64,000 bases of DNA from Clostridia bacterium (GTDB taxonomy: Bacteria; Bacillota; Clostridia; CAKSNL01; HGM11501). The position numbers were made by a program, and so were the translations under genes. The notes below the pieces were generated by a model. That model had not been told where the DNA came from. It saw only the letters and a program-made list of their open reading frames with translations, and did not search any database. Below are positions 14,589 through 32,692 of the stretch, one piece after another. Where the stretch lies: NCBI GenBank assembly GCA_045545475.1, contig JAZQAZ010000010.1:32001-96000 (forward strand), read 5' to 3'. How positions within the stretch are numbered: the first letter of the stretch is position 1; each line of letters begins with the position of its first letter.

Positions 14589-14618
14589 AAAAAATGCACC
14601 CGACGGGTGCATTTTTTT
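14588..14618 (+). terminator. intrinsic terminator of asd-dapA-dapB
   Basis: AAAAAAATGCACCCG-A-CGGGTGCATTTTTTT. Confidence 0.85.
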
Positions 14619-14752
14619 CATTATTAAGTTGCTGCATTACATGTTTAAGCGATTTATATGCCCTGGGGAAAAGATGGCATATCGGGCCAGGAAAAGGTGT
14701 TTTTAAACAAAAATATTGCTGTATTTTCGGCATATTAAAAAGCCGATAACTA

Positions 14753-14781
14753 TTGACAATGAATATGGGGTATGATATAAT
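14753..14781 (+). promoter_or_regulatory. sigma-A promoter of the island
   Basis: TTGACA-N17-TATAAT with extended -10 TG. Confidence 0.8.
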
Positions 14782-14917
14782 TTTACAAAATGTGTCATCG
14801 TATGAAATGTTAGGACATTATTTTAACTTTTAATGCTTCATGACAGTTGAATGAAGGCGATGCCGGCATAAAAACTGTTGTTTGGCGGAAAATGAAAACT
14901 TGAAAGGATGTGATTGT

Positions 14918-16225
14918 ATGGGTAAATTTGTTGCCGGAGATAAGCTCGTTTCAAAAAGCGGGGTAAATATCACGGTAAAGAAGTTCATTGGAGAAGGTGG
15001 ACAAGGTGCGGTTTATCTGGTTGATTACGGCGGAACGGAAAAGGCCCTTAAGTATTATCATAAAAGTTATATGAAAAGACTGGATACTGAAAGCTTTTAC
15101 AAAAATCTAAATCAAAACATTGCAAACGGTGCACCGGCAAAGTCATTCCTTTGGCCACAGGACCTTACAAAGTGGAGTGGGAAGGCAGATGAGCAATATG
15201 GATACATAATGGATGTTCGCCCGCCGGAATATAATGAATTGACTGATTTTTATCTGCTGAATGTAAAATTCAAATCGGACTTTGAGTTGTTGACCGCATG
15301 CATAAATATTGTCCAAGCATTCAGAGCTTTACATAACAACGGATGCAGCTATCAGGACCTTAATAACGGTAATTTCTTTATTAATAAAGATACGGGTGAT
15401 GTGCTAATTTGCGATAATGACAATGTGTCCGTTAACGAGGAAAATTTCGGCATAAAGGGTAAGCAGCGATATATGGCTCCGGAGGTGGTATTGGGCGGAA
15501 CGCCTAATAAGTATTCTGACCGTTTTTCTCTGGCTGTTATATTGTTCAGAATGATTTTCGGAGGGCAGCATCCTTTTGAGGGTAAATATTCAACACCTCC
15601 GTGTATGACTTTTGAATACGAAAGGCTGTATTACGGTGAAGATCCTGTGTTCCTTTTTGATCCTGTTGATAAAAGAAACGCTCCCGTTTCTTATTTACAC
15701 TCAGGAGCTATGATGCTTTGGCCGTTATACCCTGAATATTTACGTAATTTGTTCATTGAAACGTTTAATAAAAATGGAATCAAAAACCCCGAAAAAAGAC
15801 CTATAGAAGCTACGTGGCTTGAAACCTTAGTAAAGCTCAGAGGTGAATGGGTAAAATGTCCGAAGTGCGGAAGAGAAGGGTATCTTAATGCTCATGAAGC
15901 TGTACCCTGCTCCAAATGCGGAATAAGTTTGAGAGCACCGTATAACTTCGTTGGAGATTCGATGGAGATTCCTGTTGTGCCGGGAACGTATATATGCAAA
16001 TTTCAAATTGATAACACAAGCAATGAGTTTAACAACTTCATAGGACAAGTGCTGAAGCATGAAGTTACGAAGGAAGTTGGGTTATTCAATACTTCCAAAG
16101 AACCGTGGACAGCAATCCACGCTAATGGGAAAACTGAGGTTGTGAATCGAGGCGAAGTTGTCGTTATCGAACCTGACTTGATAGTGATGATCAGTAATAA
16201 AAAATACACATTTAAAAAAGTATGA
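14918..16225 (+). CDS. Ser/Thr protein kinase, TerY-P triad type, with Zn ribbon and C-terminal beta domain
   Basis: GEGGQGAVY glycine loop, ALK, YQDLNNGN catalytic loop, CDNDN in place of DFG, YMAPE, CPKC..CSKC; RBS AAGGA before ATG 14918. Confidence 0.9.
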   Translation: MGKFVAGDKLVSKSGVNITVKKFIGEGGQGAVYLVDYGGTEKALKYYHKSYMKRLDTESFYKNLNQNIANGAPAKSFLWPQDLTKWSGKADEQYGYIMDVRPPEYNELTDFYLLNVKFKSDFELLTACINIVQAFRALHNNGCSYQDLNNGNFFINKDTGDVLICDNDNVSVNEENFGIKGKQRYMAPEVVLGGTPNKYSDRFSLAVILFRMIFGGQHPFEGKYSTPPCMTFEYERLYYGEDPVFLFDPVDKRNAPVSYLHSGAMMLWPLYPEYLRNLFIETFNKNGIKNPEKRPIEATWLETLVKLRGEWVKCPKCGREGYLNAHEAVPCSKCGISLRAPYNFVGDSMEIPVVPGTYICKFQIDNTSNEFNNFIGQVLKHEVTKEVGLFNTSKEPWTAIHANGKTEVVNRGEVVVIEPDLIVMISNKKYTFKKV

Positions 16226-16243
16226 ATTTAGGAGGAAAAAAAC

Positions 16244-17020
16244 ATGCAGGATATTGAAATAACCGCCCCAATCAGAAAAGTGATGACTTTATTTTTATTG
16301 GTTGACACATCAGGAAGTATGATAGGAGATAAAATACAAGCCGTAAAGTCAGCTATCGAAGAAGTGAAGGTACAGTTGGCTGACTTATCAAAGAAAAATG
16401 ACGATGCGGAAATCAGATTTGCTGTAATGTCATTTGGTAAGGAGGTTAACTGGTTAACACCGAAGCCTGCTGCCCCCGAAAGTATTGACGTTAGCGGTAT
16501 TATCGCAGTTGAAAAGGCTCTTACACCCATGGGTGCAGCATGTGCAGAGCTTGAAAGTAAACTGTCGAGAAGTGAATTTCTTGAAGATGTTGGAAACTAT
16601 CCGCCTGTCACCATTTTGTTGAGTGACGGTTTTCCGACGGATAATTTTACCAGCGGATTAAATACGCTTAAGCAGAATAACTGGTTTAAGCGTGCCATCA
16701 AAGTTGCTTTTGCAATAGGAGCAGAGGCTGACAGGGATATACTGACACAGTTTACCGGAAGCAGCGAAACAGTAATAGGTGTAAACGATGCGGCTACACT
16801 TAAGGCATTGCTCGAAAAGGTTTCTGTTATTACTTCAGATTTCCAGAGTAAGCCTAAAGAAACAAAAGATGCCAAAGATGCCAAAGATGCCGAAGATCCT
16901 ACAGCAGATGCTGAAAAATTAGTTCAACAGGCGATTGAAAACGTTGACGTTGATACTGAAAAAATTGCCGTCGGAGATAATCCTGTAAAAATGCCTGAAG
17001 GTTGGGGTATATGGAAATAA
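16244..17020 (+). CDS. terY: TerY-like vWA domain protein
   Basis: MIDAS DTSGS, TPMG, LLSDG; Gly-Trp C-terminal tail; lies between kinase and PP2C. Confidence 0.85.
   Translation: MQDIEITAPIRKVMTLFLLVDTSGSMIGDKIQAVKSAIEEVKVQLADLSKKNDDAEIRFAVMSFGKEVNWLTPKPAAPESIDVSGIIAVEKALTPMGAACAELESKLSRSEFLEDVGNYPPVTILLSDGFPTDNFTSGLNTLKQNNWFKRAIKVAFAIGAEADRDILTQFTGSSETVIGVNDAATLKALLEKVSVITSDFQSKPKETKDAKDAKDAEDPTADAEKLVQQAIENVDVDTEKIAVGDNPVKMPEGWGIWK
16865..16900 (+). repeat. 9-bp tandem repeat (KDA)x3 in the vWA tail
   Basis: AAAGATGCC x3 plus a degenerate GAAGATCCT. Confidence 0.7.
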
Positions 17021-17038
17021 TAAGTAGGGGAGTGCCTA

Positions 17039-18436
17039 ATGGAAATGTATAAAGCTTTTGCATCCAGTACAATTGGCGCATACCATATCAAAAAAAATAT
17101 ATGTTGCCAGGATGCCGTTGGGAAGTATGAAGACGAGAAAATGAACATCGTCGCTGTGGCTGACGGGCATGGCTCTCCTCAATATTTCCGCTCCGACAGA
17201 GGGGCAAGATTTGCTGTTGAGGCTGCTATTGACTGTGTTAAAAATTTCGTCAATAGTTTTGAAGCTGATTGCGAAAACTCAGAAGAGTCAATATTTGTCC
17301 ATAAGAAAAACCGTGACGTGGTAATGGCTGACCTGCAGAAAAGTATTTTAGTTGCATGGCACCTCAAGGTTGAACAGGATTTTAAGGCTGAACCTTTTTG
17401 CGAAGAAGATATAGAAAAATTTGGAGAAAGGTATGTAACCAGGTTAAAAAAGGGAAAGATTGAGTGGGCATACGGTGCAACGATTATCGTTGCGGTTGTT
17501 ACGGCTGAGTTTTGGCTTGCACTTCAGATTGGCGATGGTAAATGTGTTATCGTTGACGATGAAAAAAATGTGAGCATACCGATTCCGGAAGATCCCAACT
17601 GCGAAGATAATATCACAACTTCGATTTGTCAGGATGAGGCAAGGGACAGTTTCAGATACTATTTGGACAAAAAAATTCCTGTTGCCGTATTCCTGGGAAG
17701 TGACGGCGTTGAGAAGTCTTACAGAGATGACCCCGATCTTCTGATAAAGTTTTACAGAAGTGTTGTTCCTGCATTTAGAGACAACTTTGACGAGGGAGCA
17801 AAAGTGGTTGAAGACTATCTGCCAGTCATCACCCAAAAAGGTTATGGTGATGACACGTCGATAGCGGGAATTATTCACACCGAGAAGATAAAAGCTTGTG
17901 CTGAAGTGTTCTCCGAAATGAGAGCAGAAGAAAAGCATGAAGAGTCCATGAAGGATTTCGACGAGAAATTGCAAAAAAAGAAGACTCAATTTGAAAACAA
18001 TTCTGCTGCAATCGAAGAACTCAATGCAAAGATTTCAGCTTTGGAACAGTTGCATGCAACCCTTAGCGTTGATTTTGAAAGAAAGAATAAAGAAATCGAT
18101 GAGTTAAAGGAAAAAATTACTTCTTTGGAAAAAGAGAAAGAAGACTTCTCAAAACTGATGGAAGAAAAAAAGTGTTTTGCTGAAGAAATCAAGAGAGAAG
18201 TACAAAAGATAAAAACCGACATGGAAGCGGAGATGGGGAAATATAAAGAAGAGCAACTCAAAAAAGAAAAGAAAAACGAAGAAGGTTCAGATGATGTTGC
18301 TCCCGCAGAAGAGCCGGTTGAAACTGAAGATCAAGAGAAAAAAAGTTTCATTAAAAGTATTTCTGAATTTTTATGCAAAACCGGTGCTAAAATTGGCGAA
18401 GAAGCAGAAAAACGCGAAAATACACCTAAAGCATAA
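17039..18436 (+). CDS. PP2C-family phosphatase (TerY-P type) with long C-terminal coiled coil
   Basis: CQD, VADGHGS, QIGDG, GSDGV, DDTS motifs; E/K-rich heptads after ~aa 290. Confidence 0.88.
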   Translation: MEMYKAFASSTIGAYHIKKNICCQDAVGKYEDEKMNIVAVADGHGSPQYFRSDRGARFAVEAAIDCVKNFVNSFEADCENSEESIFVHKKNRDVVMADLQKSILVAWHLKVEQDFKAEPFCEEDIEKFGERYVTRLKKGKIEWAYGATIIVAVVTAEFWLALQIGDGKCVIVDDEKNVSIPIPEDPNCEDNITTSICQDEARDSFRYYLDKKIPVAVFLGSDGVEKSYRDDPDLLIKFYRSVVPAFRDNFDEGAKVVEDYLPVITQKGYGDDTSIAGIIHTEKIKACAEVFSEMRAEEKHEESMKDFDEKLQKKKTQFENNSAAIEELNAKISALEQLHATLSVDFERKNKEIDELKEKITSLEKEKEDFSKLMEEKKCFAEEIKREVQKIKTDMEAEMGKYKEEQLKKEKKNEEGSDDVAPAEEPVETEDQEKKSFIKSISEFLCKTGAKIGEEAEKRENTPKA

Positions 18437-18454
18437 ATCAAATTTATTATGATT

Positions 18455-18483
18455 ATAACGGGGGTGTTCCACACCCCCGTTAT
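18455..18483 (+). other. intergenic 13-bp stem-loop (terminator or RNA processing/stabilising hairpin)
   Basis: ATAACGGGGGTGT-TCC-ACACCCCCGTTAT; no clear T tract, next RBS follows at once. Confidence 0.6.
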
Positions 18484-18503
18484 TAATTGGGAGAGGGAAC
18501 TTT

Positions 18504-19511
18504 ATGCTTGAAGAATATGTGAAATTCTATTATATGGTACTAAACGATAAGGAAAAAGAAATTTACATGACATTTTATAATGCTTTTAAGAAACGGGAAA
18601 AAAGTATTAAAATAAATGCAAATCCTAAAGTGTTTACAATAGATGATATCATCAAAATTATGAAGTATGTTTATAATGATACCCCTGCGTTTTATTACCT
18701 GGATTTATATTGTTGTGAATACTATATATTACCGGATGGTTATATTTATAAGCAAGAATATTTATATACCGAAGAGCAGATCGCAAAGTTTGATGCTATG
18801 CTGGAAAGCGTACTGATAACGTTCAAAAATAACTATATAAAAAAAGGTATGAGCGATTATGACAAAGAACTTGTGATACATGATTATCTTGTTCGGACAA
18901 TAAAATACGATAAAAAAGAAGCGGACGAAGATAGAGTAATTGCTGACGAGGCATACAATGTGTTGGGTGCTTTGATTAAAAGAGAGGCTGTGTGTTGGGG
19001 AATTGCATGTGCATTTAAATTGCTGTGCGATTATTGTAAAGTGAAATGTTTTGTGGCAATTGGAAAGTCTGTTCCCAGTAACGGAGACTCAGGACACGCC
19101 TGGAATATAGTTAGAATAGAAGATAAAGAGTACCATGTTGATGTAACATGGGACCTTAAAGATAAAAAGGATATTTCGTTTTGCTATGATTATTTTAATT
19201 TAGACGATTTTTTGATAAAGTTTGACCATACATGGGACAGCAAACTTTATCCGAAGTGTTGCAGTATAGAACATAACTATTACTATAGACACAAACTATT
19301 TGTAAAAGAACTGTCTGATATTAAGGATTTTGTCAAAGAAAAATTAAAACAGAAAGAAACATATATAGCTTTTAAGTTTGCCGGTGATATGCCATCTAGT
19401 GAAAAAATAGACCGTGAAATCACAAAAGGTTTTTTAATGGCACTTGCATTCAAATCATATGCTTGTCTGATTTCGGAAAAAACGCACAATATATATATTG
19501 AGATACGGTGA
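18504..19511 (+). CDS. transglutaminase-like (Cys-His-Asp) domain protein
   Basis: IHDYL, AVCWGIA (Cys), GHAWN (His), HVDVTWD (Asp). Confidence 0.88.
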   Translation: MLEEYVKFYYMVLNDKEKEIYMTFYNAFKKREKSIKINANPKVFTIDDIIKIMKYVYNDTPAFYYLDLYCCEYYILPDGYIYKQEYLYTEEQIAKFDAMLESVLITFKNNYIKKGMSDYDKELVIHDYLVRTIKYDKKEADEDRVIADEAYNVLGALIKREAVCWGIACAFKLLCDYCKVKCFVAIGKSVPSNGDSGHAWNIVRIEDKEYHVDVTWDLKDKKDISFCYDYFNLDDFLIKFDHTWDSKLYPKCCSIEHNYYYRHKLFVKELSDIKDFVKEKLKQKETYIAFKFAGDMPSSEKIDREITKGFLMALAFKSYACLISEKTHNIYIEIR

Positions 19512-19534
19512 TAAGCACATAAGGAGATTTAGGT

Positions 19535-22500
19535 ATGAGAATAGAGGACAGATTAATCGGACTTGCTACGGAGTTTAAAAATCAGCATGATAAATTTTTA
19601 AGCTTGGGGATGCAGGCGAAAAGTGTAGAAGATAAATATGATGCTCTTTCGAAAGAAATCAAAATGAAATATGAGCAGAAAAAACGAGCTAAAGAACAGC
19701 TTAAGGAAACCATATATAAGTACTACAGAATCGCCAAAGAAAATACAAGTAATGAGATAAGGGCAAATGATGTGGCTTTAATCCCTGATATAGCGAAAAT
19801 CAATAATCTTGTTAACGAAATTGATATTACAAAAGATGACGATTTGAAAGCAAGAGAAGTTGTCAGTCTGGTAAGTAAATATATATCGTATGTTAACAGA
19901 GAAATTTCGATGCTTGCCGGTGAAGAAAAAGCAGAACAAAGAAAAAATGATGAACTTAAAGCGACCGCCATGAATCGGATGTATGCTGAAAGGCAAAAGT
20001 TGTTGGATGGCTGTAAAAAATATTTAAGCAGCGATAATGTTTTAACCTTAGTGCAATTGCTTGGTCTTATTGAAAAGGAATACGAAATTGGGGCGAATTA
20101 TTTCGCGAATTGGAAACCTGCGACAAAAAAAGTAGATACAATGCTGTACGGATACCGAAAGTATCATGTGGATTGTCCCGCATTTTTGCTTGATGATATG
20201 AGCCGCATATTCGGAAAGCATTTTGATAAGAGCAGAAGTTTGATTGATTTCCCTTGCGGATATGATATGGGTAAAACTAATGTTTTTGATATTGAATATA
20301 CTGACAAAACAGCAGGAGAAGTTGCTGATGGTATAAAATCGTGGATTCTTAATTTGCTGAAATATTATAAGCCGAGCGAATTGAGAGTTACATTAATTGA
20401 TCAAATTCATTATAGTCCCGGCATACTCGGTAAACTTTCTGCACTGATTACTGCAAAGAATAGCCTTATATCCAAGGTTCCGTATGACGAAAATGACTTG
20501 CGTTTGGAAATTGCCAAACTGGCAAATTACTACAGAGACGTTGAAAATCTCATAGGTTATTCCACGGTACGTGAATATAATACAAAGAAAGAAAACGTTA
20601 AAAAAATTCCGGAGCGTTTATTTATTATAAACAGAAATGATCAGGTGAGCACAGGATATGAAAAAGCGGAATTGATGTATATTCTTAACAATGCCGAAAA
20701 GTTTGGAATAACGGTTATTATTATGACTCGCAAAAGAGATATTGAACAAAAAACCAGGAACAGCATTAATTTGCCGAATACTAAATTTATTAAAACTGAT
20801 GCCAACGGAAATCTGTATATATTCGATAATGGCAATTGGATAGCGTTTAGTATTAATAAATTGAGTTGTGACATTCCTGCGGATTTTATTCAAAAGATAT
20901 TGAAAGAAACCACCCCTGTTGAGATTGGAACGAAGTATCCTAAGCGATTTCAGATAACTACGCCGAAAAAATCCATAGGAAAGCACAAAGATATTACAAT
21001 TCCCTTTGCTGTCGACAATAATGATAAGGCTGTGTATTGCAACTTTGATAATGAAAACTTTGCGGCATTTATGATGGGGTCATCTCGCTCGGGTAAAAGT
21101 ACATTGCTTCATGTAATGATTTCGCACCTGGTTATGAATTATCATCCCGATGAATTGGAGCTGTGGTTGGTTGACCTTAAAATGAATGAATTTAGTCTGT
21201 ATGCAAATGTATGCCCTCCGCATCTCAAATATCTTTTGCTTGAAAAGTCACCTGATCTTGTGTATGACCTGCTAGATAAACTTACAGAAGAACTTGAAAA
21301 ACGCAAAATAGTATTTTCAAGAAATGATTGGAAAAAAATTACTGATGTTCCGATTAATGTGTATATGCCGGTGATATTCGTCATTATTGACGAATTTGCA
21401 CAGATGTCCCAGATAATAAAAAACGACAACGGAAGAGGATATGCCGGAGTTCTTGAAAATCTCCTAAGACAAGGCGGCGGTTACGGATTTAAATTTATAT
21501 TTGCCGATCAGACATATACAACCGGTGTGGAAGGATTAACCGATCCTGCAAGGGAACAGATTCAACTTCGTTTTGCATTATATAACAATAACAGAAGCGA
21601 AATTAGACACACATTATATCTTTCGGACAATCAGATAACAACGCAGGTTGATGAATGGATAAGCACAATGCCTGTTTATCATACGCTGTTTAAGTGGAGA
21701 GACGAAAAACAAAAAATACATGTGGACCTGTTAAGGAATATGTATATTGAATCCGACGCAAAAGGGTCGAATAAATATATCAGCGAAGTTATAAACACGG
21801 TGAATTCTAAAATTAAAGCGGTTCCTTACGGTACTGTAACCACAGACAATACATATATATATCGAATGCCCGTATGTATAAATGGAAGCCACCCCAGGAC
21901 TATTCAAAGCTTGTCTCAAGCTTATGCGGAATATGAAAGTCGTCTTAAAGGGAATGGATACTTCCCCGAAGATACATTGATTTATCAGGGTGTTCCGTGT
22001 AGCTTTAATTTAGTTAAACCATTCTTGCTGAAAAACACATCTTCAGAAAATATATTTATAATAAAAGATCGAGCCGGTAAACTCGGATATCAGATGAGCG
22101 TGTTGCTTTCAATATTGAAAAGTTTTATGCGTAATTCAGGAGAAATTGAGGTCTGGGCCCACTACAGATCAGGTTTGTATGCTGAATATGGCTCGCTTTT
22201 GTCAAAAAAGTGTACGGTTATTACAGACCTATTGGGAATTTGCAGAAGAGCAGAAGCAATCAAAAATGATATTTTATCCGGTAAAAAGAGCAACAAAATG
22301 GTCGTAGTGTTAGGGTATGAATACATTTGCGACGAGTTGGAAAACTTAAGCTTACTTCAATCCTATGCAAATAAGAATACCAATCAATCCGTTGTTGATT
22401 CGGATGATGATTTTCCGAAAACAGCCGGGGAGTTAAAAAAATTAGTTGACAATACTCCCGACAAGAATGAAAAAGCAAGAATTATTGCTAAATTTAATCA

Positions 22501-22897: not shown

Positions 22898-22922
22898 AAA
22901 TTAAAAGAAAGAAGGTAAAAAA

Positions 22923-23180
22923 ATGGCTGTAGAACTTGAATCCTTAATAGCAGTGTCAAGAGCGTTGGAGGAATACGCTGAAAATGTCACTCAAGATATA
23001 GCTAAAATGGCAGATGCAGCAGTTGATTGCCATGATAACATGGAGAAGGACGAATATAGTAAGAAGGCAATAAATAACCTTAAAGGGTGCCTTGAAGAAT
23101 TAAAAAAGGCTACTGTAAAGGCTATTGAAGTGAAAGAAGATATTGATGAATTGATTAAGAAAATACGTAAAGGTATTTAA
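22923..23180 (+). CDS. small helical hairpin protein, WXG100-like (85 aa)
   Basis: Two amphipathic helices with a central turn (NMEKDEYS), directly after the FtsK-like ATPase; no literal WXG. Confidence 0.6.
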   Translation: MAVELESLIAVSRALEEYAENVTQDIAKMADAAVDCHDNMEKDEYSKKAINNLKGCLEELKKATVKAIEVKEDIDELIKKIRKGI

Positions 23181-23201
23181 AAGTTGAAAGAGGCCATAGC
23201 A

Positions 23202-24221: not shown

Positions 24222-24234
24222 TGGAGGGGAAGGC

Positions 24235-24708
24235 ATGAACTTAGAAAAATTAATGGAATATATTAATTCGAATTGCAGTGTATATAACATATGCGATAAT
24301 GAATGTTTGTCACTTCCGATGCCTTTGGGTATAAATGGGAAAATGGTTGTATTTACTTATACCGTTACCATGGGAATGCCTGCAATAATCACGGTTACTA
24401 AAAAAATAATATTGGATGCAGAGTCTTACGAAACCGATTTTGAAATCATCCAAAACCCTGATTTATCAGAAAATGAGAGTTATTTAGAAACCTACAAAGA
24501 TTTACCTGTTACAACATCAGCGGATAAAGTGTATGAGGAAAATATGAGATTGTTGCAAAGAATGCTGGAAAGTAATTTTTCGTGCGACCGAACTGCGGAA
24601 TTTGCAAAATATTTTGCGAATGCAATGCCGCAGTCTTTACAATCGGTATATTATTCTGTTATACCTGAGTTTTTTATCGAGATAAGAGGTATTTTAAGTA
24701 AAGGTTAA
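24235..24708 (+). CDS. hypothetical protein, candidate immunity partner of the peptidase
   Basis: RBS GGAGGGG before ATG 24235; immediately downstream of the putative effector; role inferred from position only. Confidence 0.6.
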   Translation: MNLEKLMEYINSNCSVYNICDNECLSLPMPLGINGKMVVFTYTVTMGMPAIITVTKKIILDAESYETDFEIIQNPDLSENESYLETYKDLPVTTSADKVYEENMRLLQRMLESNFSCDRTAEFAKYFANAMPQSLQSVYYSVIPEFFIEIRGILSKG

Positions 24709-24721
24709 GAAGGTGATAGCT

Positions 24722-25081
24722 ATGGCTAGATATAATATATCAAAGGAAAGCTTGACTTTATTGGACGAGCTGGCTGATAATCTTACAGAGAGCGTAAGTA
24801 ATATCAATATTCAGACATACGAATTATTAAATTTGGTAACAAAACTTGGCGATACACTTGGTGTTTATCAAAAAGGCGTTTTGAAACTTATAAAAGACGT
24901 TATTGCGATTAACGATTCAGCACAGAGTGAAACCAAATATTTGATAGGAACCACCATTCCTGCAATACAGGATAATATAAGATTTCTGTTGAGTCATGAA
25001 CTTGGATCCGGAGAAGAAAGTGATGACGACGAAGACCCGGCAATAAAAAAATTGGTATTAAAACTTCCGAGAAGGATGTAA
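24722..25081 (+). CDS. WXG100-like protein (LGVY turn) with acidic/basic C-terminal tail
   Basis: Aligns with the N-terminus of 23202 and with 25110; ends SGEESDDDEDPAIKKLVLKLPRRM. Confidence 0.65.
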   Translation: MARYNISKESLTLLDELADNLTESVSNINIQTYELLNLVTKLGDTLGVYQKGVLKLIKDVIAINDSAQSETKYLIGTTIPAIQDNIRFLLSHELGSGEESDDDEDPAIKKLVLKLPRRM

Positions 25082-25109
25082 TAGTTAATTTAAAACAGGA
25101 GGAAAAGAG

Positions 25110-25388
25110 ATGACTAAAGTAGATATTAGTGCAAAGGGAATTGAACATTTAGAAAAGCTTAAAGAGGATTTAATAAAAATAAGTAACGAAATTGAAGAAG
25201 AAGGTCAGACACTCAAATCTCTTGTTGTAAGAGAAGGCGACTCTTTAGGAGTTTATGAAGAAAAAATACTTGAGTTAATTGAAGAAATTAAAAAAATTGA
25301 AGAGGTTGGAAGAGAATCCCTTCCTGAATTAAATAAAAAACTGGAAGAAAAAATTGAGGAAATAAAAGATTTGATGAAATATCTTTAA
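25110..25388 (+). CDS. WXG100-like protein (LGVY turn), 92 aa
   Basis: RBS AGGAGG; helix-GDSLGVYEEKI-helix. Confidence 0.7.
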   Translation: MTKVDISAKGIEHLEKLKEDLIKISNEIEEEGQTLKSLVVREGDSLGVYEEKILELIEEIKKIEEVGRESLPELNKKLEEKIEEIKDLMKYL

Positions 25389-25418
25389 GCTTATTCTTTG
25401 AAGGGAAGAGGAAACAGA

Positions 25419-26207
25419 GTGGAACCAATAACTAACAGTGTGGTAAAAGAAAGAATTCGTTTGAGAATTGAAGATGAAATCGGAAAAGAAATATATGAAA
25501 TAAATTGTAAGGCAAATGAAGAGATTTATAAACTGAAGCCTAAAAATCTACCTGATCCGATAGGATGGGGATGTCTCGGATTGATTTTAGCTTGCGGGAC
25601 ATTCGGCATAGGCTTTTTAGTTTGTCTGTTAGGATACCATATACATAAAGCTGCGGTTGAAGGGGATAACGAAGCAATCGAAATTAAAAAGAAAAAAATC
25701 AGAGCTGATGCCGACGCGAAGATTGCTAAGCTTAAACAAACTGCTGACCTGAAAACACGTAAGGAAATTCTTGCATATGATACGGATGTTCAACGACATG
25801 TAAAAAGCGCATCGACTAAGACTAAGGAATTAGGGCCTATGGTTGCACATGTTGCAATGATGTTTGAAAGAATGATTTCTCACGCTGATAAAGGAACAAA
25901 TAAGCGATTCATAGAAGCTTACTTTACATTTGAAGTAACTAAGACTATGATTATATATCATTACCAAAGCACATATACAAACAGCAATGACAATTATGAT
26001 TTTGATAAAAATCGTTATAAATTGCTTACTGAAGATGCAGAATGTGAAGCTCTTGCTCAGGTGCTGACCGTTTTATCTACTAAGAAGGTTATAGCGAAAT
26101 ACCCGGCAAATTCGGTTAATATTAATGTGACGCATAATGATGCGAAAGTAACTATACATTTCAAGGCAGCAAATCCTAATTTTATAAACTCCATAAAAAT
26201 TATTTAA
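25419..26207 (+). CDS. hypothetical membrane protein with coiled coil
   Basis: GTG start after GAGG; hydrophobic stretch WGCLGLILACGTFGIGFLVCLLGY. Confidence 0.7.
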   Translation: MEPITNSVVKERIRLRIEDEIGKEIYEINCKANEEIYKLKPKNLPDPIGWGCLGLILACGTFGIGFLVCLLGYHIHKAAVEGDNEAIEIKKKKIRADADAKIAKLKQTADLKTRKEILAYDTDVQRHVKSASTKTKELGPMVAHVAMMFERMISHADKGTNKRFIEAYFTFEVTKTMIIYHYQSTYTNSNDNYDFDKNRYKLLTEDAECEALAQVLTVLSTKKVIAKYPANSVNINVTHNDAKVTIHFKAANPNFINSIKII

Positions 26208-26248
26208 GGTAGAGTTTGTTGCGAATATATTTTGAAAAGGTATAATAA

Positions 26249-26288
26249 AAAATAGAGTCTTTCGACATGGCTAGAAAGACTCTATTTT
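26249..26288 (+). terminator. 15-bp perfect hairpin between the FtsK module and the radical SAM gene
   Basis: AAAATAGAGTCTTTC-N10-GAAAGACTCTATTTT. Confidence 0.7.
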
Positions 26289-26350
26289 GGATACCGAGTG
26301 TGTTGGCAATCGGTGTCTGCGTTTACATTTTGGGGAGAGATGGTGTGTTT

Positions 26351-27349
26351 ATGAAGTACAAAATTAAAAAATGTGTTTGGGAATTAACTACTGCATGCAC
26401 AATGAACTGTAAACATTGCGGTTCTAAGGCCGGAAATAAAAGGGACAATGAACTTAAATGGGATGAGGCTAAGAAAGTAGCAGAACAGCTTGTTGAATTA
26501 GGATGCGAAAAGGTTGCCTTAATTGGTGGGGAAGTTACATTGGTTCCATATTGGGCAGAGTTAGCACACTTTTTTTCGGTCAATAGTGTAGTGTGTGATA
26601 TTATAACGAACGGATACCGAAAATCCGAAAAAGATTATGAGCAGATTGCGAAATCTAAGGTACGGGCGGTGGCAATTTCTATTGACGGTTTTAGAGATGT
26701 ACATAATAAAATCAGAGGAAAAGATGATGCCTTTGAAGAATTGGAAAAATTCGTGGATAGATTGAATGAAATGCATATAAAGATAACGGCTATTACAACT
26801 ATAACAAAGGAATGTATCGCCGATTTACCTGAAATTTATAATTGGCTGAAGAGTAAAAAGGTAATTGCGTGGCAATGGCAACAAGTATCTCCGATGGGCA
26901 ATGCCAAGGATAATTTATTGAATTGCCTTTCGAAGGATGACTTACGTGAAGTGATAGATATTTATGAGAAACTGAGCGGGGCGGAAGTATTGCTGTCAAT
27001 GGCAGATAATATAGGTTATTATTATGCATATAAGAATAGATTGTTTCAACAATTTAAAGGTTGTGCGGCGGGATTATGCGTTATAGGTATAGATAGTGTT
27101 GGAAATGTAAAGGGTTGCGAGTCACTGTATGATGATAAGTATATAGAAGGAAATTTGCGAGAAGAAACATTAGCCGACATATGGAACGATGACACAAGAT
27201 TTTCTTATAATCGCAATTTCAGTATAGAATTGATGAGTGGCAATTGTAAAGAGTGTGATGTGAAACACATATGTGCCGGCGGATGCAGAAGCTTTAATGC
27301 ATTTAATGGCGAACTATATAATCATGTGAATTGTATAAAAAATATTTAA
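26351..27349 (+). CDS. radical SAM/SPASM enzyme, splicease-like peptide/protein maturase
   Basis: CVWELTTACTMNCKHCGSKAG (CxxxCxxC), IGGE, SIDG, SPASM cysteines GCAAG...VKGC...CKECDVKHICAGGCRS. Confidence 0.9.
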   Translation: MKYKIKKCVWELTTACTMNCKHCGSKAGNKRDNELKWDEAKKVAEQLVELGCEKVALIGGEVTLVPYWAELAHFFSVNSVVCDIITNGYRKSEKDYEQIAKSKVRAVAISIDGFRDVHNKIRGKDDAFEELEKFVDRLNEMHIKITAITTITKECIADLPEIYNWLKSKKVIAWQWQQVSPMGNAKDNLLNCLSKDDLREVIDIYEKLSGAEVLLSMADNIGYYYAYKNRLFQQFKGCAAGLCVIGIDSVGNVKGCESLYDDKYIEGNLREETLADIWNDDTRFSYNRNFSIELMSGNCKECDVKHICAGGCRSFNAFNGELYNHVNCIKNI

Positions 27350-27371
27350 AAATAGCGAATGGGGTGTAAAT

Positions 27372-27965
27372 ATGGAACTTAATAAATTGTTGGTCATAGA
27401 AAAACAATATATAGATGCATATTTAAATGCAACTATATTATCTAAAAATTATCTTGAAAAACTTTTAGCTGAGGTAAAAAACTTATCAACAACCATTACC
27501 GAAACAGTGATATATAAAAATATGTTTAACGTGATATCAACAGCTTATGATCTTGTATTGGATATGGAAGAATTATGTAAGAAAGCAGTTTTTATAGAGG
27601 GTGAGATGGCATATCCTGAAAACTATAAGTTTGAAGAGATATCAAATATAGAAAATAAAGTAAATACAGCAGAAAGATATGAATATTTAATGCATGAGCT
27701 ATATAACGCTATGAGAAAAATAGGAACAGAAAGAACTATTTTTGCAGCGATTAATATAGCTGAGGAAAAGGGAAATATTTACATGATAGAGTTAAAAGTT
27801 GCGAAAAATCAAATTGACAGTATGCAATGTAGAGAGTTATACGGTCCTCCAGATTTTGACGATGACTTTGAAAAAAATAGAGATGACATTACGCAGCAGG
27901 CTACAATATACGGTCCTCCGGATTTTGACGATGACTTTGACACTAGCTTTGGTTCTTGGAAATAA
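27372..27965 (+). CDS. helical protein with duplicated C-terminal (L/I)YGPPDFDDDF motif; candidate rSAM substrate
   Basis: Directly after the rSAM gene; repeat visible in protein and DNA. Confidence 0.75.
   Translation: MELNKLLVIEKQYIDAYLNATILSKNYLEKLLAEVKNLSTTITETVIYKNMFNVISTAYDLVLDMEELCKKAVFIEGEMAYPENYKFEEISNIENKVNTAERYEYLMHELYNAMRKIGTERTIFAAINIAEEKGNIYMIELKVAKNQIDSMQCRELYGPPDFDDDFEKNRDDITQQATIYGPPDFDDDFDTSFGSWK
27838..27940 (+). repeat. 34-bp direct repeat x2 (69-bp period) encoding YGPPDFDDDF
   Basis: TATACGGTCCTCC(A/G)GATTTTGACGATGACTTTGA at 27838-27871 and 27907-27940. Confidence 0.9.
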
Positions 27966-27986
27966 TCTTAAATACAGGAGTGTGTT

Positions 27987-28481
27987 ATGGAAAGGTTGAT
28001 ATTAAAAAACCGCAAGATTTTAGAAATGGTTTTCGTATTACATAAACAGTTGGGTATTATTTTTGATGAGTGGATTGTTGAACTTGAGCATCTCAAAGTA
28101 TTCAGTGGGATGGAAGTTCCGGAAGTTGATGCTGTGCATTTGTTGATGAAATGTCTGGAAGAGATTTTAGAAGAGTGTAATTATGGTAATATCGAAAGAT
28201 ACACCTTAGATTATCCCGAAAATTTCTCGGAAGAGTTTAACGAGACAATACTTCAAATTTATAAAACATACGAAAGAATTCTTCAAAAAATATGTAATCT
28301 CAAAGAAGGCATAACATCACTTATATTTAATAAGAAGATTGTATTAAATATGCCGGACTGTAGCTCTGATATGAGATTATTGTCAATGATAGCTGATGAA
28401 ATTAATATATATTTGAAGTTATTGACAGAAATACAGATTAAATGCAGAGAAATTAATACTATTTACGGAACAGCTTTATGA
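27987..28481 (+). CDS. paralog of the 27372 protein, ending in IYGTAL; candidate rSAM substrate
   Basis: Shares YPEN(Y/F) and CRE...YG motifs with 27372; RBS AGGAG. Confidence 0.7.
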   Translation: MERLILKNRKILEMVFVLHKQLGIIFDEWIVELEHLKVFSGMEVPEVDAVHLLMKCLEEILEECNYGNIERYTLDYPENFSEEFNETILQIYKTYERILQKICNLKEGITSLIFNKKIVLNMPDCSSDMRLLSMIADEINIYLKLLTEIQIKCREINTIYGTAL

Positions 28482-28556
28482 TAAGAGGTATCTTGAAACT
28501 TCAAGGTGTAATATGCTCAAGAAAAGTATCTATGAGAAAACATGGAGAAGCTTATA

Positions 28557-29564
28557 ATGGATAAAGAAATATTGGAGATTTTAAGAAAAACATACGAAGT
28601 GAACGGAGATGCACTTTTTGCGGATAATGTGATTTTAAAGGCTTATTTAACGGATTTACTGGTTGGTTATCCCGCTGAAAAAAAGAGACTTATATTGGCA
28701 GTAAATGAAAATCTTGTTAGAAAGTTAATCGAAAACAAAGCAGATTCTGCAAAATGTGCATTGTATTCAATGATTCTTGTGGATACATATGCATTGCCGG
28801 AAGAAGTAGCTGAAGAAATTATAGATGTATTCTATTATGCTATTAATGGATATCGTGTATCCAAAAGAAAAGTTAACTCCGATGGTCGGACACGAAATGT
28901 GCAGCAAGAAGAAATGAATAAGGAATCAAAGCGTATTTTGGAAGAAAGAAGGAAAGAGGAGTTAATTGCAAGATTGGAAATGGCTGTTGCGGAAAGGAAA
29001 AAAAAGGCCACTGAAGAAAAGCTAAAAGCTACTGAAGAAAGACAGAAAGCCACCGAAGAAAGGCGAAAAGCTACTGAAGAAAGACAGAAGGCCACCGAAG
29101 AAAGGCGAAAAGCTACTGAAGAAAGGCAGAAAGCTATCGAAGAAAGGCAGCTTGCACGAAAGTGGGTTAACGAACAGAAGCTTAAAGAGGAACAAGCGAG
29201 GATTACGGAAGAAAACAGGCTTCGCGAAAAAGAGAAGAAAAGTAAAGCACTGCAGGAGTCTGTTACTTCCTCACTGATGACATGTTTCTTGGTTGGTTGT
29301 ATAATGTTTTCTAACTATATGGTGCCGGCAGAAAGTGTGGCTGAAGCTTGGCTTAAGTGTTTAGGAGCGTTAGGTATTCCTGTGATTCGCATATTTGTTG
29401 AGATGCTTAGTGAAGAAGATGAAATGAAGAAAAAATATATCGGGCGTATTAATTTGGCCATAATTATTGTGGTATTGGGCTGTTTTTATTGCATTGAAGA
29501 ATTATACAACAATAATATCGCAATAAGAACTATAGTAGATTTTCTGAGAGTTTTTATGAGTTAA
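28557..29564 (+). CDS. shared N-terminal domain + heptad-repeat coiled coil + C-terminal TM helices
   Basis: N-terminal ~100 aa aligns with the next two genes; KATEER(Q/R) repeats; about three hydrophobic helices. Confidence 0.8.
   Translation: MDKEILEILRKTYEVNGDALFADNVILKAYLTDLLVGYPAEKKRLILAVNENLVRKLIENKADSAKCALYSMILVDTYALPEEVAEEIIDVFYYAINGYRVSKRKVNSDGRTRNVQQEEMNKESKRILEERRKEELIARLEMAVAERKKKATEEKLKATEERQKATEERRKATEERQKATEERRKATEERQKAIEERQLARKWVNEQKLKEEQARITEENRLREKEKKSKALQESVTSSLMTCFLVGCIMFSNYMVPAESVAEAWLKCLGALGIPVIRIFVEMLSEEDEMKKKYIGRINLAIIIVVLGCFYCIEELYNNNIAIRTIVDFLRVFMS
29004..29150 (+). repeat. 21-bp tandem repeat x7 (KATEERQ/KATEERR) with 42-bp higher-order period
   Basis: Alternating GCTACTGAAGAAAGACAG / GCCACCGAAGAAAGGCGA units. 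Confidence 0.85.
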
Positions 29565-29681
29565 CGGCGGATTTATGAATAAAGAGAATGAAATGTAAAC
29601 AGAAACTAAAGACAGCTTAAAAAGAATGGATTTCGATTACGGTGCTGATTTTTTAATGAGATTATTTACAGAGAGGTTTTT

Positions 29682-30665
29682 ATGAAAAGGGAAGTTTTGG
29701 CCATTTTGCGTAAAACATATTTGGATTACGGAAAGGAAGTTTTTTGCGATAGGAATAGATTAAATGCATTCTTGGGGGACTTATTATATGAATATCCTCA
29801 CGAGCGTAAAAAAATCTCTTTAGCAATAAACGAGAATATGGCATATAAAATTATCACCGAAGTTACTGCTGAAAATCCATTCAGGATAAATGTATTTATA
29901 GAGGAATTAGTAGAGTGCTACGAACTGCCCAGGAATGTAGCGACAGATATTATAAATACTTTATGCTATTCTATAACCGGGAAAAAATATATGTCAAAGA
30001 CTATTGAAAAAATATTAAAAGAATTGTATTATTCTCCGGATGAGGCTGTTGAAAAAGAATATGCGGATGAAATATATCTGGCGGCACAGGAAGGAAACGC
30101 TGATGCACAGTATAGGGTAGGCAATTGGTTTGAAACGGGAAAAATTGTTGAAAAGAATATGTTTATGGCAAAAGAATGGTATACAAAGGCGGCGGAAAAT
30201 AAACATTGCTGGGCAATACATAATCTCGGAAGATTTTGCGAGATTGAAGAAAACGAGACAGATGCATTAAAATACTATCGTACTTCGCTTAACTTTGGCG
30301 AAATTCAAAGTGCGTATAATATTGCGTTGTATTATAAAAATAAGGCAAAAAATAAAGAACCACATGAAAAAGTAGAATGCTATACGTTAGCTATTAAATA
30401 TTTAAAAAAAGGTACGGATATTGTTATTCCTAAATATAACTCATCGTATAAGGTGTTTTTGAAAATAAAGTATGAATGTGCAAAACAGGCAGCGTTTTTA
30501 TGCAAAGACATATTTGATATTATAATGAAAAGAGAAGAGCTTAAAGATTCATTTGATATGAAGGCTAATGTAGAAACTTCCAAATACTTTATGAACATTC
30601 AAAAAGACACAGCGAATGTTATGAGGGATATGTATAATTTAACAATAGATAAAATGTCTTTTTGA
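29682..30665 (+). CDS. shared N-terminal domain + Sel1-like repeats
   Basis: AAQEGNADAQYRVG, AKEWYTKAAE, AIHNLG, SAYNIALYY. Confidence 0.8.
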   Translation: MKREVLAILRKTYLDYGKEVFCDRNRLNAFLGDLLYEYPHERKKISLAINENMAYKIITEVTAENPFRINVFIEELVECYELPRNVATDIINTLCYSITGKKYMSKTIEKILKELYYSPDEAVEKEYADEIYLAAQEGNADAQYRVGNWFETGKIVEKNMFMAKEWYTKAAENKHCWAIHNLGRFCEIEENETDALKYYRTSLNFGEIQSAYNIALYYKNKAKNKEPHEKVECYTLAIKYLKKGTDIVIPKYNSSYKVFLKIKYECAKQAAFLCKDIFDIIMKREELKDSFDMKANVETSKYFMNIQKDTANVMRDMYNLTIDKMSF

Positions 30666-30686
30666 TTTTTTACATAGGGGGAAAAT

Positions 30687-31889
30687 ATGCGAAACGAAGT
30701 ATTAAATATATTTAGGAAAATGTATTTAGACAATGGTGCGGATTTGTTTTTAAATAACAGTAAGCTAGTATCATACTTAAAAGATATGCTTGTTGAATTT
30801 CCAAAAGAAAGAGCTCGTTTATGCTTTGTAGCCAGAGAAAATATTGTATCGAAAATCTATAGAGAAGTATCATCTGAAGACTTATCTAGATGCGGGATAA
30901 TGATTAGCCTTTTGGTGGATACATATTCCATGTCGGATATTATTGCGACAGATATTGTAAATGCAATTTGCTATGCTTTGTTCGGTCGCAATTATTCTGG
31001 CGATAAGCATGAAAACAAAACTGTTACATGCGAAGCCGGAACAGACTTTCTGTTGCAAACAAAATTAATTAAATATACCGGAGCAGATGTTGAAGAAATA
31101 ATAGTTCCTGATGGGGTTGAGGTTATAGGCCAGGATGCATTTTTGGCTATAGAAAATGTAAAGAGAATAGTCCTGCCTAATACAGTTAAAGTAATAGAAG
31201 CAAATGCATTTTATTGGCTTATGAATCTTGAGGAAATTAACTTGCCAGATTCTGTTATAAGTATCGGAGCATGGGCATTTTGCGGTTGCGAATCGCTTAA
31301 GGAACTTACTTTGCCTGATAAAATTGAAACCATTGAGGAATTTGCATTTAGCAGAAGCGGAATCGAAAGGATTGAATTGCCGAAAGGTCTGAAAAAGATT
31401 AAGCACGGCTCTTTTATGAACTGTAAAAGGCTAAAGGAAATCTATATTCCGGAAAAAGTGGAATTGATAGAAGATATGGTATTTACTGCATCTGGAATAG
31501 AAAAGTTCGACATTTCTCCTGATAATCCGAAATTTGAGTTTTGGAATAATGGTGGTATTCTGGTGGAAAACATGGGTGTTAAAGAGAAAATGACATATGG
31601 AATCGATGACCGTATAATAAAGACAAAAGTGATTGAACGAAAATTAATCTGGTTTAGAGATGCTTTTTTATATAATAATATTACAGTTCCTTCGGAAATC
31701 GCTGTTATAGCAAATAGAGCTTTTCCGCATAGTGCCAAAGGAAAGCGTATAATTATTCCTAATTCGGTTACAAAAATTGAAGATGAGGCGTTGCCGCCTC
31801 ATAGTATACTGATATGTGAGCGAGGATCGGCCGCTGAAGGGTATGCGATAAAGAATAACCTGAAATATATATATCGTAACAACATATAA
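30687..31889 (+). CDS. shared N-terminal domain + BspA-type leucine-rich repeats
   Basis: Repeated LP.sV..Ig..AF..C..L units. Confidence 0.85.
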   Translation: MRNEVLNIFRKMYLDNGADLFLNNSKLVSYLKDMLVEFPKERARLCFVARENIVSKIYREVSSEDLSRCGIMISLLVDTYSMSDIIATDIVNAICYALFGRNYSGDKHENKTVTCEAGTDFLLQTKLIKYTGADVEEIIVPDGVEVIGQDAFLAIENVKRIVLPNTVKVIEANAFYWLMNLEEINLPDSVISIGAWAFCGCESLKELTLPDKIETIEEFAFSRSGIERIELPKGLKKIKHGSFMNCKRLKEIYIPEKVELIEDMVFTASGIEKFDISPDNPKFEFWNNGGILVENMGVKEKMTYGIDDRIIKTKVIERKLIWFRDAFLYNNITVPSEIAVIANRAFPHSAKGKRIIIPNSVTKIEDEALPPHSILICERGSAAEGYAIKNNLKYIYRNNI

Positions 31890-32688: not shown

Positions 32689-32692
32689 AAAA

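Follow-up and report, generated by a model that had tools for sequence, protein, structure and literature searches.

A TerY-P-linked island in a Clostridia bacterium with a soluble EccC-like ATPase and toxin-fused helical hairpins: a probable mobile type VII-like system carrying a radical SAM pair

The island described here lies in a 64,000-nucleotide stretch of DNA from a Clostridia bacterium (assembly GCA_045545475.1, contig JAZQAZ010000010.1, positions 32,001 to 96,000 of the forward strand), the whole of which is referred to as the window and supplies the coordinates used below. Between the intrinsic terminator of dapB and a Vut_1 transporter gene, 17 co-oriented open reading frames (ORFs) were found, separated by gaps of 3-143 bp. 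Their products include a TerY-P triad (kinase, vWA protein and PP2C phosphatase), a soluble ATPase resembling EccC and EssC of type VII secretion systems (T7SSs), small helical hairpin proteins, and a radical SAM (rSAM) enzyme encoded beside two proteins with tyrosine-containing tails. A preliminary description of this DNA had counted 16 co-oriented genes; the orientation holds, and the count fell one short as a 157-aa ORF at 24235-24708 had been overlooked. The gene order and domain calls given there were borne out by Pfam and ORF analysis. The features are as follows.

14589..14619, + strand: intrinsic terminator of dapB, a GC-rich hairpin followed by a T run, at the left border of the island
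14753..14781, + strand: sigma-70-type promoter with an extended -10 element (TTGACA-17-TATAAT with TG)
14918-16225, + strand: serine/threonine kinase with a C-terminal zinc ribbon and a beta-rich tail of no assigned family, the TerY-P kinase (Pfam Pkinase, 9.7e-15); its ATG is at 14918 and the ORF opens at a TTG at 14882
16244-17020, + strand: TerY-like vWA protein (Pfam VWA, 3.9e-9) with an intact metal-ion-dependent adhesion site (MIDAS) of the form DxSxS (DTSGS)
17039-18436, + strand: PP2C phosphatase with a C-terminal coiled coil (Pfam PP2C_2, 7e-32)
18504-19511, + strand: cytoplasmic transglutaminase-like protein of the Cys-His-Asp fold (Pfam Transglut_core, 1.9e-6)
19535-22897, + strand: soluble EccC/EssC-like ATPase, 1120 aa (Pfam FtsK_SpoIIIE)
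22923-23180, + strand: 85-aa helical hairpin protein (h85) without the LGVY turn, its family turn being DC.DNMG.D (17-sequence alignment)
23184-24221, + strand: LGVY hairpin fused to a papain-like (C39_2-like) cysteine peptidase, a candidate polymorphic toxin (Peptidase_C39_2, 20.6 bits, cut-off 24)
24235-24708, + strand: 157-aa ORF directly after the peptidase fusion, a candidate immunity protein by position and size
24713-25081, + strand: 122-aa LGVY hairpin with an acidic C-terminal tail (subfamily tail GLG..DDE.P..KKLVL, by alignment)
25110-25388, + strand: 92-aa LGVY hairpin (alignment of the LGVY family)
25398-26207, + strand: conserved single-pass membrane protein (hydrophobic segment 55-82, by hydropathy)
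26351-27349 (ORF opens at 26267), + strand: radical SAM/SPASM enzyme (Pfam Radical_SAM and SPASM); its homologues start at M29
27372-27965, + strand: orphan helical protein of 197 aa with two tail copies of YGPPDFDDDF (x-Y-G-P-P-D-F-D-D-D-F), a candidate rSAM substrate
27987-28481, + strand: orphan helical protein ending ...CREINTIYGTAL (tail IYGTAL), a possible second substrate
28542-29564, + strand: protein with the shared N-terminal domain shN (profile match), charged KATEERxK repeats and C-terminal transmembrane segments (271-323, by hydropathy)
29682-30665, + strand: shN followed by Sel1 repeats (Pfam Sel1, 2.8e-9)
30687-31889, + strand: shN followed by BspA-type leucine-rich repeats (LRRs), the last island gene (Pfam LRR_5, 5.4e-43)

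A scan of 14400-32800 returned 81 promoter-like sites against 68.3 +/- 8.4 in shuffled sequences, and the site at 14753-14781 is the sole one to match the consensus in 12 of 12 positions, which confirms the consensus promoter reported earlier behind the dapB terminator. No convincing terminator on the + strand was seen inside the island in a scan of the region. GC content, taken per 1 kb, is 0.40-0.44 at 12-18 kb and 0.316-0.399 at 18-32 kb, so that the AT-richness previously noted relative to the backbone was also found, with the drop from about 18 kb onwards. Neither integrase nor transposase families were recognised by Pfam in the 17 genes, as had been stated for integrases. In the closest relative (G002), whose dapB product is 96% identical at the amino-acid level, nucleotide similarity of 91% ends at position 14593 and is picked up again at 31932, on another contig; different genes, of function not known, directly follow its dapB. 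Given where this similarity stops and resumes, the island is an accessory segment of 17.3 kb, and the locus that holds it is variable.

The product of 19535-22897 is an ATPase of the EccC/EssC kind without a hydrophobic or transmembrane (TM) segment by hydropathy and without an FHA domain by Pfam. In its AlphaFold2 model (20 homologues, mean pLDDT 80.7) a coiled coil of residues 3-183 (helices 3-68 and 104-183) precedes three alpha/beta domains. The best structural match found by Foldseek was the three-domain cytoplasmic part of Thermomonospora EccC (4nh0; E 5.5e-24 over 1042 columns), followed by EssC (4lya) and EccC two-domain fragments and then by FtsK motors, and EccC and YukB were also the best matches in a sequence-profile search of the PDB. 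A Walker A motif is present just in the middle domain (GSSRSGKS at 515), and exactly one such motif ([AG]x4GK[ST], at about residue 515-533) was found in 20/20 aligned family members. Three FtsK/HerA-type domains, a Walker A motif in the middle one alone, an N-terminal coiled coil and the lack of FHA and TM segments together place the protein with the "mobile T7SS"-like ATPases; the missing TM segment and a low score against TIGR03928 (56.1 bits, cut-off 778.4) leave it outside the membrane-bound EccC/EssC proteins of the canonical T7SS (a, b, c).

No orthologue of this ATPase was detected in any of 60 relatives, where matches were at the level of the P-loop alone (best E 1.8e-9). A large protein collection held 45 clusters of it (P0002-P0046) at 32-43% identity, 43 of them covering at least 95% of the query. 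Longer relatives of 1589-1604 aa were also observed (P0047, P0049 and the product of 7946-12724 in locus L035), in which Pfam recognised additional domains of the NTPase kind, among them NACHT and AAA_22; in L035 a 377-aa rSAM protein that weakly matches the rSAM of the window (E 3e-10) is encoded nearby. Among the weak actinobacterial relatives (L039-L051), the gene context was examined for L046 and was uninformative.

The ATPase gene is followed by genes for helical proteins of two families of about 90 aa, one with the turn D.LG.Y (LGVY) and the other with DC.DNMG.D, which are weakly related to each other (hhalign 67.6%). Some relatives of the LGVY hairpins gave sub-threshold matches to T7SS_ESX_EspC (21.6-22.2 bits, cut-off 23.5). 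Within the source genome LGVY proteins are confined to this island. In the genome as a whole the WXG100 model found nothing and the EssC model nothing that exceeds its cut-off, so that a canonical T7SS was not detected with the WXG100 and EssC models.

The LGVY domain also forms the N-terminus of longer proteins, usually encoded immediately after the ATPase. When 18 of these long fusions (the window protein and 17 related ones) were run against Pfam, the C-terminal domain was Gln_amidase (papain-fold toxin 1) above the cut-off in four and Peptidase_C39_2 above the cut-off in two; Peptidase_C39_2 was matched below the cut-off in 3/18, among them the window protein at 20.6 bits, a WHH nuclease with a colicin-DNase match was found in one, and eight had no family. 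The LXG model gave no match at E <= 0.01 in the window fusion or the 17 related ones (for four of them the threshold was E <= 0.001). By phmmer, the peptidase domain of the window protein matches proteins of six loci (E 3e-15 to 3e-11), two of which have no Pfam match. Gln_amidase, C39_2-like and WHH nuclease toxin domains are thus seen to swap on one conserved N-terminal domain. Exported polymorphic toxins show this same pattern, in which a constant targeting domain carries interchangeable toxin domains and a small ORF stands behind each (Zhang et al., 2012; PMC3482391).

When one genome was scanned for each species, 40 loci were obtained; clear relatives of the ATPase are encoded in 26 of them (L013-L038), mostly in Lachnospiraceae and other gut Clostridia and in a few metagenome-assembled genomes (MAGs) labelled Bacilli. 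Half of these (13/26) have at least 6.7 kb on both sides of the ATPase gene and are called well-flanked here. The occurrence of the other island proteins was as follows.

LGVY hairpins: 22/26 loci; 12/13 well-flanked
85-aa hairpin (h85): 18/26 loci; 13/13 well-flanked
TM protein: 17/26 loci; 11/13 well-flanked
PP2C: 13/26 loci
Kinase: 12/26 loci
vWA: 12/26 loci
Full kinase-vWA-PP2C triad: 7/13 well-flanked loci
Transglutaminase: 8/26 loci; 5/13 well-flanked
rSAM of the island: 1/26 loci; 1/13 well-flanked, the weak match at L035 mentioned above (E 3e-10)
Tyrosine-tailed proteins: 0/26 loci; 0/13 well-flanked

In seven loci surveyed with Pfam the triad stands upstream or downstream of the ATPase, and LRR_5, Sel1, TerY_C and transglutaminase domains are encoded in the same operons. 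It was also observed that in L016 (15537-19611) genes for an HD_4 protein, an ADP-ribosylglycohydrolase and an Lgt-like protein are inserted between hairpin genes, which shows the region downstream of the ATPase to be a variable cargo slot.

Since the same parts recur together in other genomes, the triad, transglutaminase, ATPase, hairpins, TM protein and shN-bearing LRR/Sel1 proteins are one conserved system. The preliminary description had proposed a single regulated system and a survey of FtsK homologues by which to judge it. That proposal stands for the core, where TerY-P genes, LGVY hairpins and shared-domain genes co-occur with the ATPase, and fails for the rSAM and xYG-tailed proteins, with neither a tyrosine-tailed protein nor an rSAM with its partner in the 26 loci. 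That the region is a random pile-up, with defence or conflict modules of unrelated kinds collected at a variable locus (the outcome named beforehand as speaking against one system), is very improbable: for the core it is contradicted by the 26-locus counts, in which the same gene set recurs with the ATPase over several families, and the rSAM module alone behaves as an independent insert. The features that would fit a pile-up are the variability of the locus itself (other genes after dapB in G002, the right flank on another contig), the difference in GC between the triad (0.40-0.415) and the rest (0.32-0.40), and a mosaic of affinities, in which the vWA, PP2C and transglutaminase proteins, like the triad in general, match L034, a MAG labelled Bacilli, far better than any other locus (E 1e-74, 3e-84 and 7e-73, respectively), and the ATPase best matches L013-L017, being just 27% identical to that of L034.

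The first three genes of the island form a TerY-P triad, in that a TerY-like vWA protein with a MIDAS motif, a PP2C gene adjoining the vWA gene at a distance of 18 bp and a kinase fused to a zinc ribbon are all present. Four cysteines of this ribbon are invariant in a 12-sequence alignment, and zinc-ribbon chains head a PDB profile search with it (E 6.8e-4). TerD was not found in the source genome (95% complete), a link to Ter genes not being required by the cited descriptions of TerY-P. In two other loci, L013 (607-3777, 19879-22360) and L016 (1980-4534, 22457-23311), the whole kinase-to-transglutaminase system is placed inside a Ter operon that holds, according to Pfam, four TerD genes, ATPgrasp_Ter, AIM24, a HAD phosphatase and a cation ATPase. 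The transglutaminase-like protein has no TM segment by hydropathy and no signal peptide. Assignment to a defence system known to PADLOC was rejected, as just generic kinase, FtsK and viperin-like rSAM matches were obtained; the vWA protein matched no PADLOC family at E <= 0.01, and the PP2C protein gave coiled-coil noise only.

The conserved membrane protein was modelled confidently with AlphaFold2 (pLDDT 90.8). The model combines a helical hairpin and a long helix with a small C-terminal alpha/beta domain, and Foldseek returned nothing for it from the PDB at E <= 0.001. Two further comparisons were set aside: a VIA wide search matched the helical hairpin at 12-131 only (Z <= 10, in the range expected for helical models), and the best score in the protein Atlas (0.76) was uninformative. 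The shN domain, a helical domain of about 105 aa, is the common N-terminus of the last three island proteins. It also heads LRR and Sel1 proteins of other ATPase loci, often behind a zinc ribbon, and the window trio aligns with these at a probability of 97.9% and E 3.8e-13 in hhalign. In the first of the three, tandem KATEER(Q/R)K repeats (window 28930-29130) lie between the shN domain and the TM segments. Three further shN genes are found on contig C8 of the same genome (L092 5699-6646 and 6786-7850; L093 4310-5008), including an adjacent Sel1 and LRR pair, and neither FtsK nor TerY-P genes lie in their vicinity; the domain is therefore not exclusive to the system and also occurs outside it.

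Overall, the island probably belongs, as a Clostridial form, to the "mobile type VII-like" systems that are linked to TerY-P, and it would export hairpin-toxin complexes. The triad, the transglutaminase and the shN-bearing LRR, Sel1 and TM proteins may make up its sensing and switching part, in which the repeat proteins or the vWA protein would pick up a signal that alters the phosphorylation state set by the kinase and PP2C. The soluble ATPase, presumably a hexamer (the form known for its superfamily), would engage hairpin dimers and hairpin-toxin complexes, and the changed phosphorylation state would license it to take up the latter. With the TM protein as the likely membrane partner or site, toxin complexes might then be handed across the membrane against competitors, the small ORF after the toxin gene protecting the producer. 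Phosphorylation gating of type VII secretion, as the preliminary description proposed it, has two published parallels, the T7SSc (Garrett, Higginson & Palmer, 2024; PMC11217815) and the Esr-Esx system (bioRxiv 2026; PMC13622651).

Several findings weigh against export. The ATPase has no membrane anchor, and Bell et al. (2024; PMC11090510) themselves take the missing TM domains as a sign of "a different mechanism" from secretion. No export channel was identified, the sole conserved membrane protein having one hydrophobic segment and no recognisable fold, and YukD-like/EsaB-like or other T7SS membrane subunits gave no Pfam or NCBIfam match in the 17 genes, a search that small divergent proteins could escape. 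The hairpins had been described as WXG100-like, for which their small size, conserved central turn and context speak; none of those in the island or the scanned relatives reached the Pfam thresholds for WXG100, LXG or EspC, with no PF06013 match, and profile searches of the PDB with the hairpin families retrieved generic designed or viral coiled coils and no WXG100 protein. The 157-aa ORF is a candidate immunity protein by position and size only: ORFs of 158-174 aa occupy the same post-toxin position in L015, L027 and L018, and it gave no phmmer match and an hhalign probability of 2.5% to these same-position ORFs. The neighbourhood counts come from profile searches with the window proteins on L013-L038, a set that does not include the closest homologues of the ATPase (P0002-P0006, 40-43% identity). 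Finally, the triad is missing from 6/13 well-flanked loci and is consequently regarded as a frequent accessory regulator, dispensable and not obligate, in agreement with the "mobile, stand-alone" remark quoted in the available text of Bell et al. (PMC11090510).

The lack of a TM segment in the ATPase would also suit an intracellular defence without export. Phage or stress would then be sensed by TerY-P, the ATPase would stay in the cytoplasm and unfold or release hairpin-bound toxins or act on nucleic acid, and the toxin would kill or arrest the infected cell (abortive infection). Such a role accords with the existence of TerY-P-like triads as stand-alone anti-phage systems and with the same ATPase type in CoCoNuT restriction operons, both mentioned in the available passages of PMC11090510, with the embedding of the L013 and L016 systems in a Ter stress operon, and with the weak PADLOC matches of the kinase to the defence kinases mad6 (2.9e-14) and PD-T4-6. 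It does not readily account for the swapping C-terminal toxins and their small ORFs, a signature of exported polymorphic toxins (PMC3482391), nor for the membrane protein that accompanies the ATPase in 11/13 well-flanked loci, and PADLOC gave no meaningful match for the vWA protein, TM protein, transglutaminase or hairpins. Intracellular defence is accordingly considered possible but unlikely, and export of hairpin-toxin complexes is retained as the preferred interpretation.

The rSAM gene and the genes of the two tailed proteins follow the TM protein gene and precede those of the shN proteins. The CX3CX2C motif and the SPASM cysteines of the enzyme are invariant in an alignment of its homologues. 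Its best NCBIfam match is TIGR04103 (rSAM_nif11_3; 209.5 bits, cut-off 725), followed by TIGR03913 (rad_SAM_trio; 187.5 bits); these two outscore all other SPASM maturases, and the same is true of its homologues, at up to 270.5 bits. The rSAM_nif11_3 family is one that we take to be the spliceases. Metagenomes contain 1325 proteins of the enzyme's own family, the best 120 of which are 42-55% identical to it and cover about 91% of the ORF. In species genomes the family is rare: at E <= 1e-60 it was found in 4 of the 398 further genomes scored for the class, and it was found in 0/400 other genomes of a phylum sample.

Seven loci with rSAM homologues were counted, L061 (21% identity) being left out. 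In six of them (L054-L057, L059 and L060; not L058) the rSAM gene adjoins an ORF with one to four copies of [VILMA]Y[AG][GP]P, the motif elsewhere typically reading V-Y-A-G-P-E-Y-F. A CxxC...CxxC zinc ribbon is encoded in five of these six, in the motif-bearing ORF itself in four and, in L055, in a second motif-bearing ORF across the rSAM gene; the exception is the cysteine-rich 87-aa ORF of L060. The motif is found in none of the 674 genes (221,408 residues) of loci L013-L052, and in the window it occurs in 27372-27965 only. According to Pfam, the rSAM neighbours in four loci (L065/L054, L066/L055, L058 and L059) are ordinary genes, with no TerY-P or FtsK.

The two tailed proteins of the island are orphans. 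Among 1.84e9 representatives the sole homologue of 27372-27965 is a 99%-identical 192-aa protein, the copy of this or a near-identical genome, two repetitive matches having been inspected and dropped as false; for 27987-28481, among proteins of 90-287 aa, only itself was recovered. A BLASTP comparison of the two gave E 0.28, and the YPEN[YF] and CRE[LI]..YG that they share, and nothing else, suggest that they may be paralogues. Neither has a detectable relation to the hairpin profiles. XYG sites are present as LYG and IYG in 27372-27965 and as IYG in 27987-28481. When the rSAM was predicted in complex with residues 125-197 of the 197-aa protein, SAM (S-adenosylmethionine) and three clusters, the median score was 0.45 against 0.01 for the best control, where the score mark is reached by 58/80 solved complexes and 2/110 mismatched pairs and scores up to 0.60 cover seven of the 80 solved complexes and both mismatches. 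With a partner pLDDT of at least 34 and agreement between runs in at least 47% of contacts, the prediction lends weak support to an rSAM complex with the 197-aa protein.

It was concluded that the rSAM and the tyrosine-motif protein are a separately conserved, predicted enzyme-substrate pair that seems to have landed here in a variable operon slot. The module is not counted with the conserved core, as the rSAM and tyrosine-motif pair is found in 0/26 ATPase loci and the rSAM loci elsewhere have no TerY-P or FtsK; its presence beside a TerY-P/ATPase system was seen nowhere else among the loci examined.

In spliceotide systems, loss of a tyramine unit (-135.06 Da) leaves a ketoamide. If the island rSAM acted in a like manner on the Tyr-Gly tails, the resulting reactive groups (ketoamides in the case of a splicease) might inhibit or regulate the papain-fold enzymes of the island (the toxin peptidase and the transglutaminase) or travel as cargo, and the module would be a working part of the system. 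This integration is considered improbable. The three genes lie within the operon, where gaps of 21-22 bp separate them from one another and gaps of 59-143 and 60 bp set the module off from its neighbours, strong terminators being absent, and the nearest curated family is, as noted, rSAM_nif11_3 (209.5 bits), a score which is nevertheless far under the 725-bit family cut-off. Both motifs of the window are x-Y-G, like the splice sites of spliceases, which act at XYG sites and include binary systems without a Y protein (PMC11414181 and PMC11626197, in their available text); many partners of related rSAM enzymes are Y-A-G and not Y-G. The available text of PMC11626197 also reports that the ketoamide products of splicing inhibit serine and cysteine proteases. 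Integration would further agree with the replacement of the usual zinc-ribbon partner by novel helical domains in the island and, weakly, with the complex prediction (0.45 against 0.01 for the best control). Against it stand the 0/26 ATPase loci with such a pair, the sole rSAM match among them being the weak one of L035, the four Pfam-scanned rSAM loci without a TerY-P or FtsK neighbour, and the lack of any detectable relation between the tailed proteins and the hairpin families.

A bolder combination of two linked claims may be drawn, and as a joint proposition it is quite improbable. The Clostridial family would be an undescribed type VII subtype, in which a soluble ATPase active in its middle domain only would dock on the conserved single-pass membrane protein and, controlled by TerY-P, would export the polymorphic toxins that are fused to hairpins; and a captured, splicease-related rSAM would make ketoamide warheads from the Tyr-Gly tails of two orphan helical proteins, which would inhibit the papain-fold enzymes of the island as a post-translationally armed layer of immunity or regulation.

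Outside the island, a serine resolvase gene is located at window 306-872 (+ strand), 14 kb upstream, and an AddAB-type helicase-nuclease pair at 3499-10255 (- strand); both lie upstream of asd-dapA-dapB. Some 4 kb downstream of the island, a gene at 35932-38745 (+ strand) encodes a 937-aa protein with TIR_2, Sel1 and TPR repeats. It is placed in a second AT-rich patch (GC 0.345-0.355 at 36-39 kb) and may be a separate defence-type gene; the shN domain is absent from its product.

The core combination is already in print in outline, and the statement in the preliminary description that no account of the whole was known does not hold for it. Zhang et al. (2012; PMC3482391) describe the ATPase type in the footnote to a table. 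Bell et al. (2024; PMC11090510) describe EssC homologues in which the central domain alone is active, with a coiled coil at the N-terminus and neither FHA nor TM domains; two WXG100 proteins are encoded alongside, and TerY-like vWA genes bracket the set. In their available passages, PMC4978471 and PMC11090510 both cite Anantharaman et al. (2012) for the link of TerY-P to a WXG/FtsK "minimal type VII" operon. The literature, taken without supplements and most subscription papers, yielded no Clostridial form with toxin-fused LGVY hairpins, a conserved TM protein, a cytoplasmic transglutaminase and shN-LRR/Sel1 proteins, and within the same scope no description of the rSAM and Y[AG][GP]P pair, with nothing relevant for the tyrosine motif; the member lists in the supplements of Garrett et al. 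(2024) and Bell et al. (2024), which lie outside that search, could hold relatives of the ATPase family.

The island shares with the mobile T7SS an ATPase of three FtsK/HerA domains, of which the middle one alone is active, with a coiled coil at its N-terminus and without FHA or TM segments, as well as small helical hairpins encoded next to it and flanking genes for a TerY-like vWA protein, a PP2C phosphatase and a zinc-ribbon kinase. The island differs in its occurrence in Clostridia, in the fusion of its hairpin domain to swapping toxins, in the LGVY or DC.DNMG turn in place of WxG, in its conserved TM protein, transglutaminase and shN-LRR/Sel1 neighbours, and in the absence of McrBC/CoCoNuT genes. 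Soluble-ATPase type VII-like machines have been noted in passing since 2012; the Clostridial form, with polymorphic toxin domains on its hairpins and a conserved membrane partner, would make secretion by such machines testable in gut anaerobes.

With the LXG toxins of the T7SSb, which work with small helical Lap partner proteins, the island shares an N-terminal helical domain joined to a variable C-terminal toxin, an immunity-like ORF behind it and small helical partners; unlike them, it has no Pfam LXG match, is without EssA, EssB, EsaA and a membrane EssC, and carries the LGVY turn. For binary spliceotide systems, the likeness described in the available text of PMC11414181 and PMC11626197 lies in an rSAM/SPASM enzyme adjoining x-Y-G proteins, whereas the island rSAM scores 209.5 bits against a cut-off of 725 and the partners of its relatives are zinc-ribbon proteins with repeated V-Y-[AG]-G-P-[ED]-[YFM]-[FM], often Y-A-G. 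The pair, with rSAM_nif11_3 as its nearest curated family and a putative action on whole proteins, is of interest by itself for its uncharacterised chemistry.

The regulatory genes find their counterparts in two systems. In the T7SSc of Bacillota (Garrett, Higginson & Palmer, 2024; PMC11217815), an EssC-type ATPase without FHA and a WXG100 protein are encoded together with the kinase TscD, the cytoplasmic vWA protein TscE and the PPM phosphatase TscF; the ATPase, kinase, vWA protein and phosphatase have their like in the island. The T7SSc also has a membrane-bound TscC, a TM helix in TscD, a YukD-like TscB and an EspG-like TscG, whereas the ATPase and kinase of the island are soluble, Pfam detected neither a YukD-like nor an EspG-like protein, and the WXG100 model does not match the hairpins. 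The survey by Garrett et al. began from membrane EssC sequences in RefSeq. In the Esr-Esx system of Actinomycetota (bioRxiv 2026; PMC13622651), a vWA protein, a serine/threonine kinase, a phosphatase and a transglutaminase are likewise encoded beside a type VII system, and the available text reports that these regulators were shown to switch on secretion and defence upon a threat from outside. Esr uses MoxR and FHA proteins and a surface beta-propeller sensor anchored by the transglutaminase (PMC13622651); in the island no MoxR or FHA match was found, the transglutaminase lacks a signal peptide and TM segment, and the candidate sensors are LRR and Sel1 proteins without signal peptides. If the export reading is correct, the phosphorylation-gated toxin export known from T7SSc and Esr-Esx would be extended to a third architecture.

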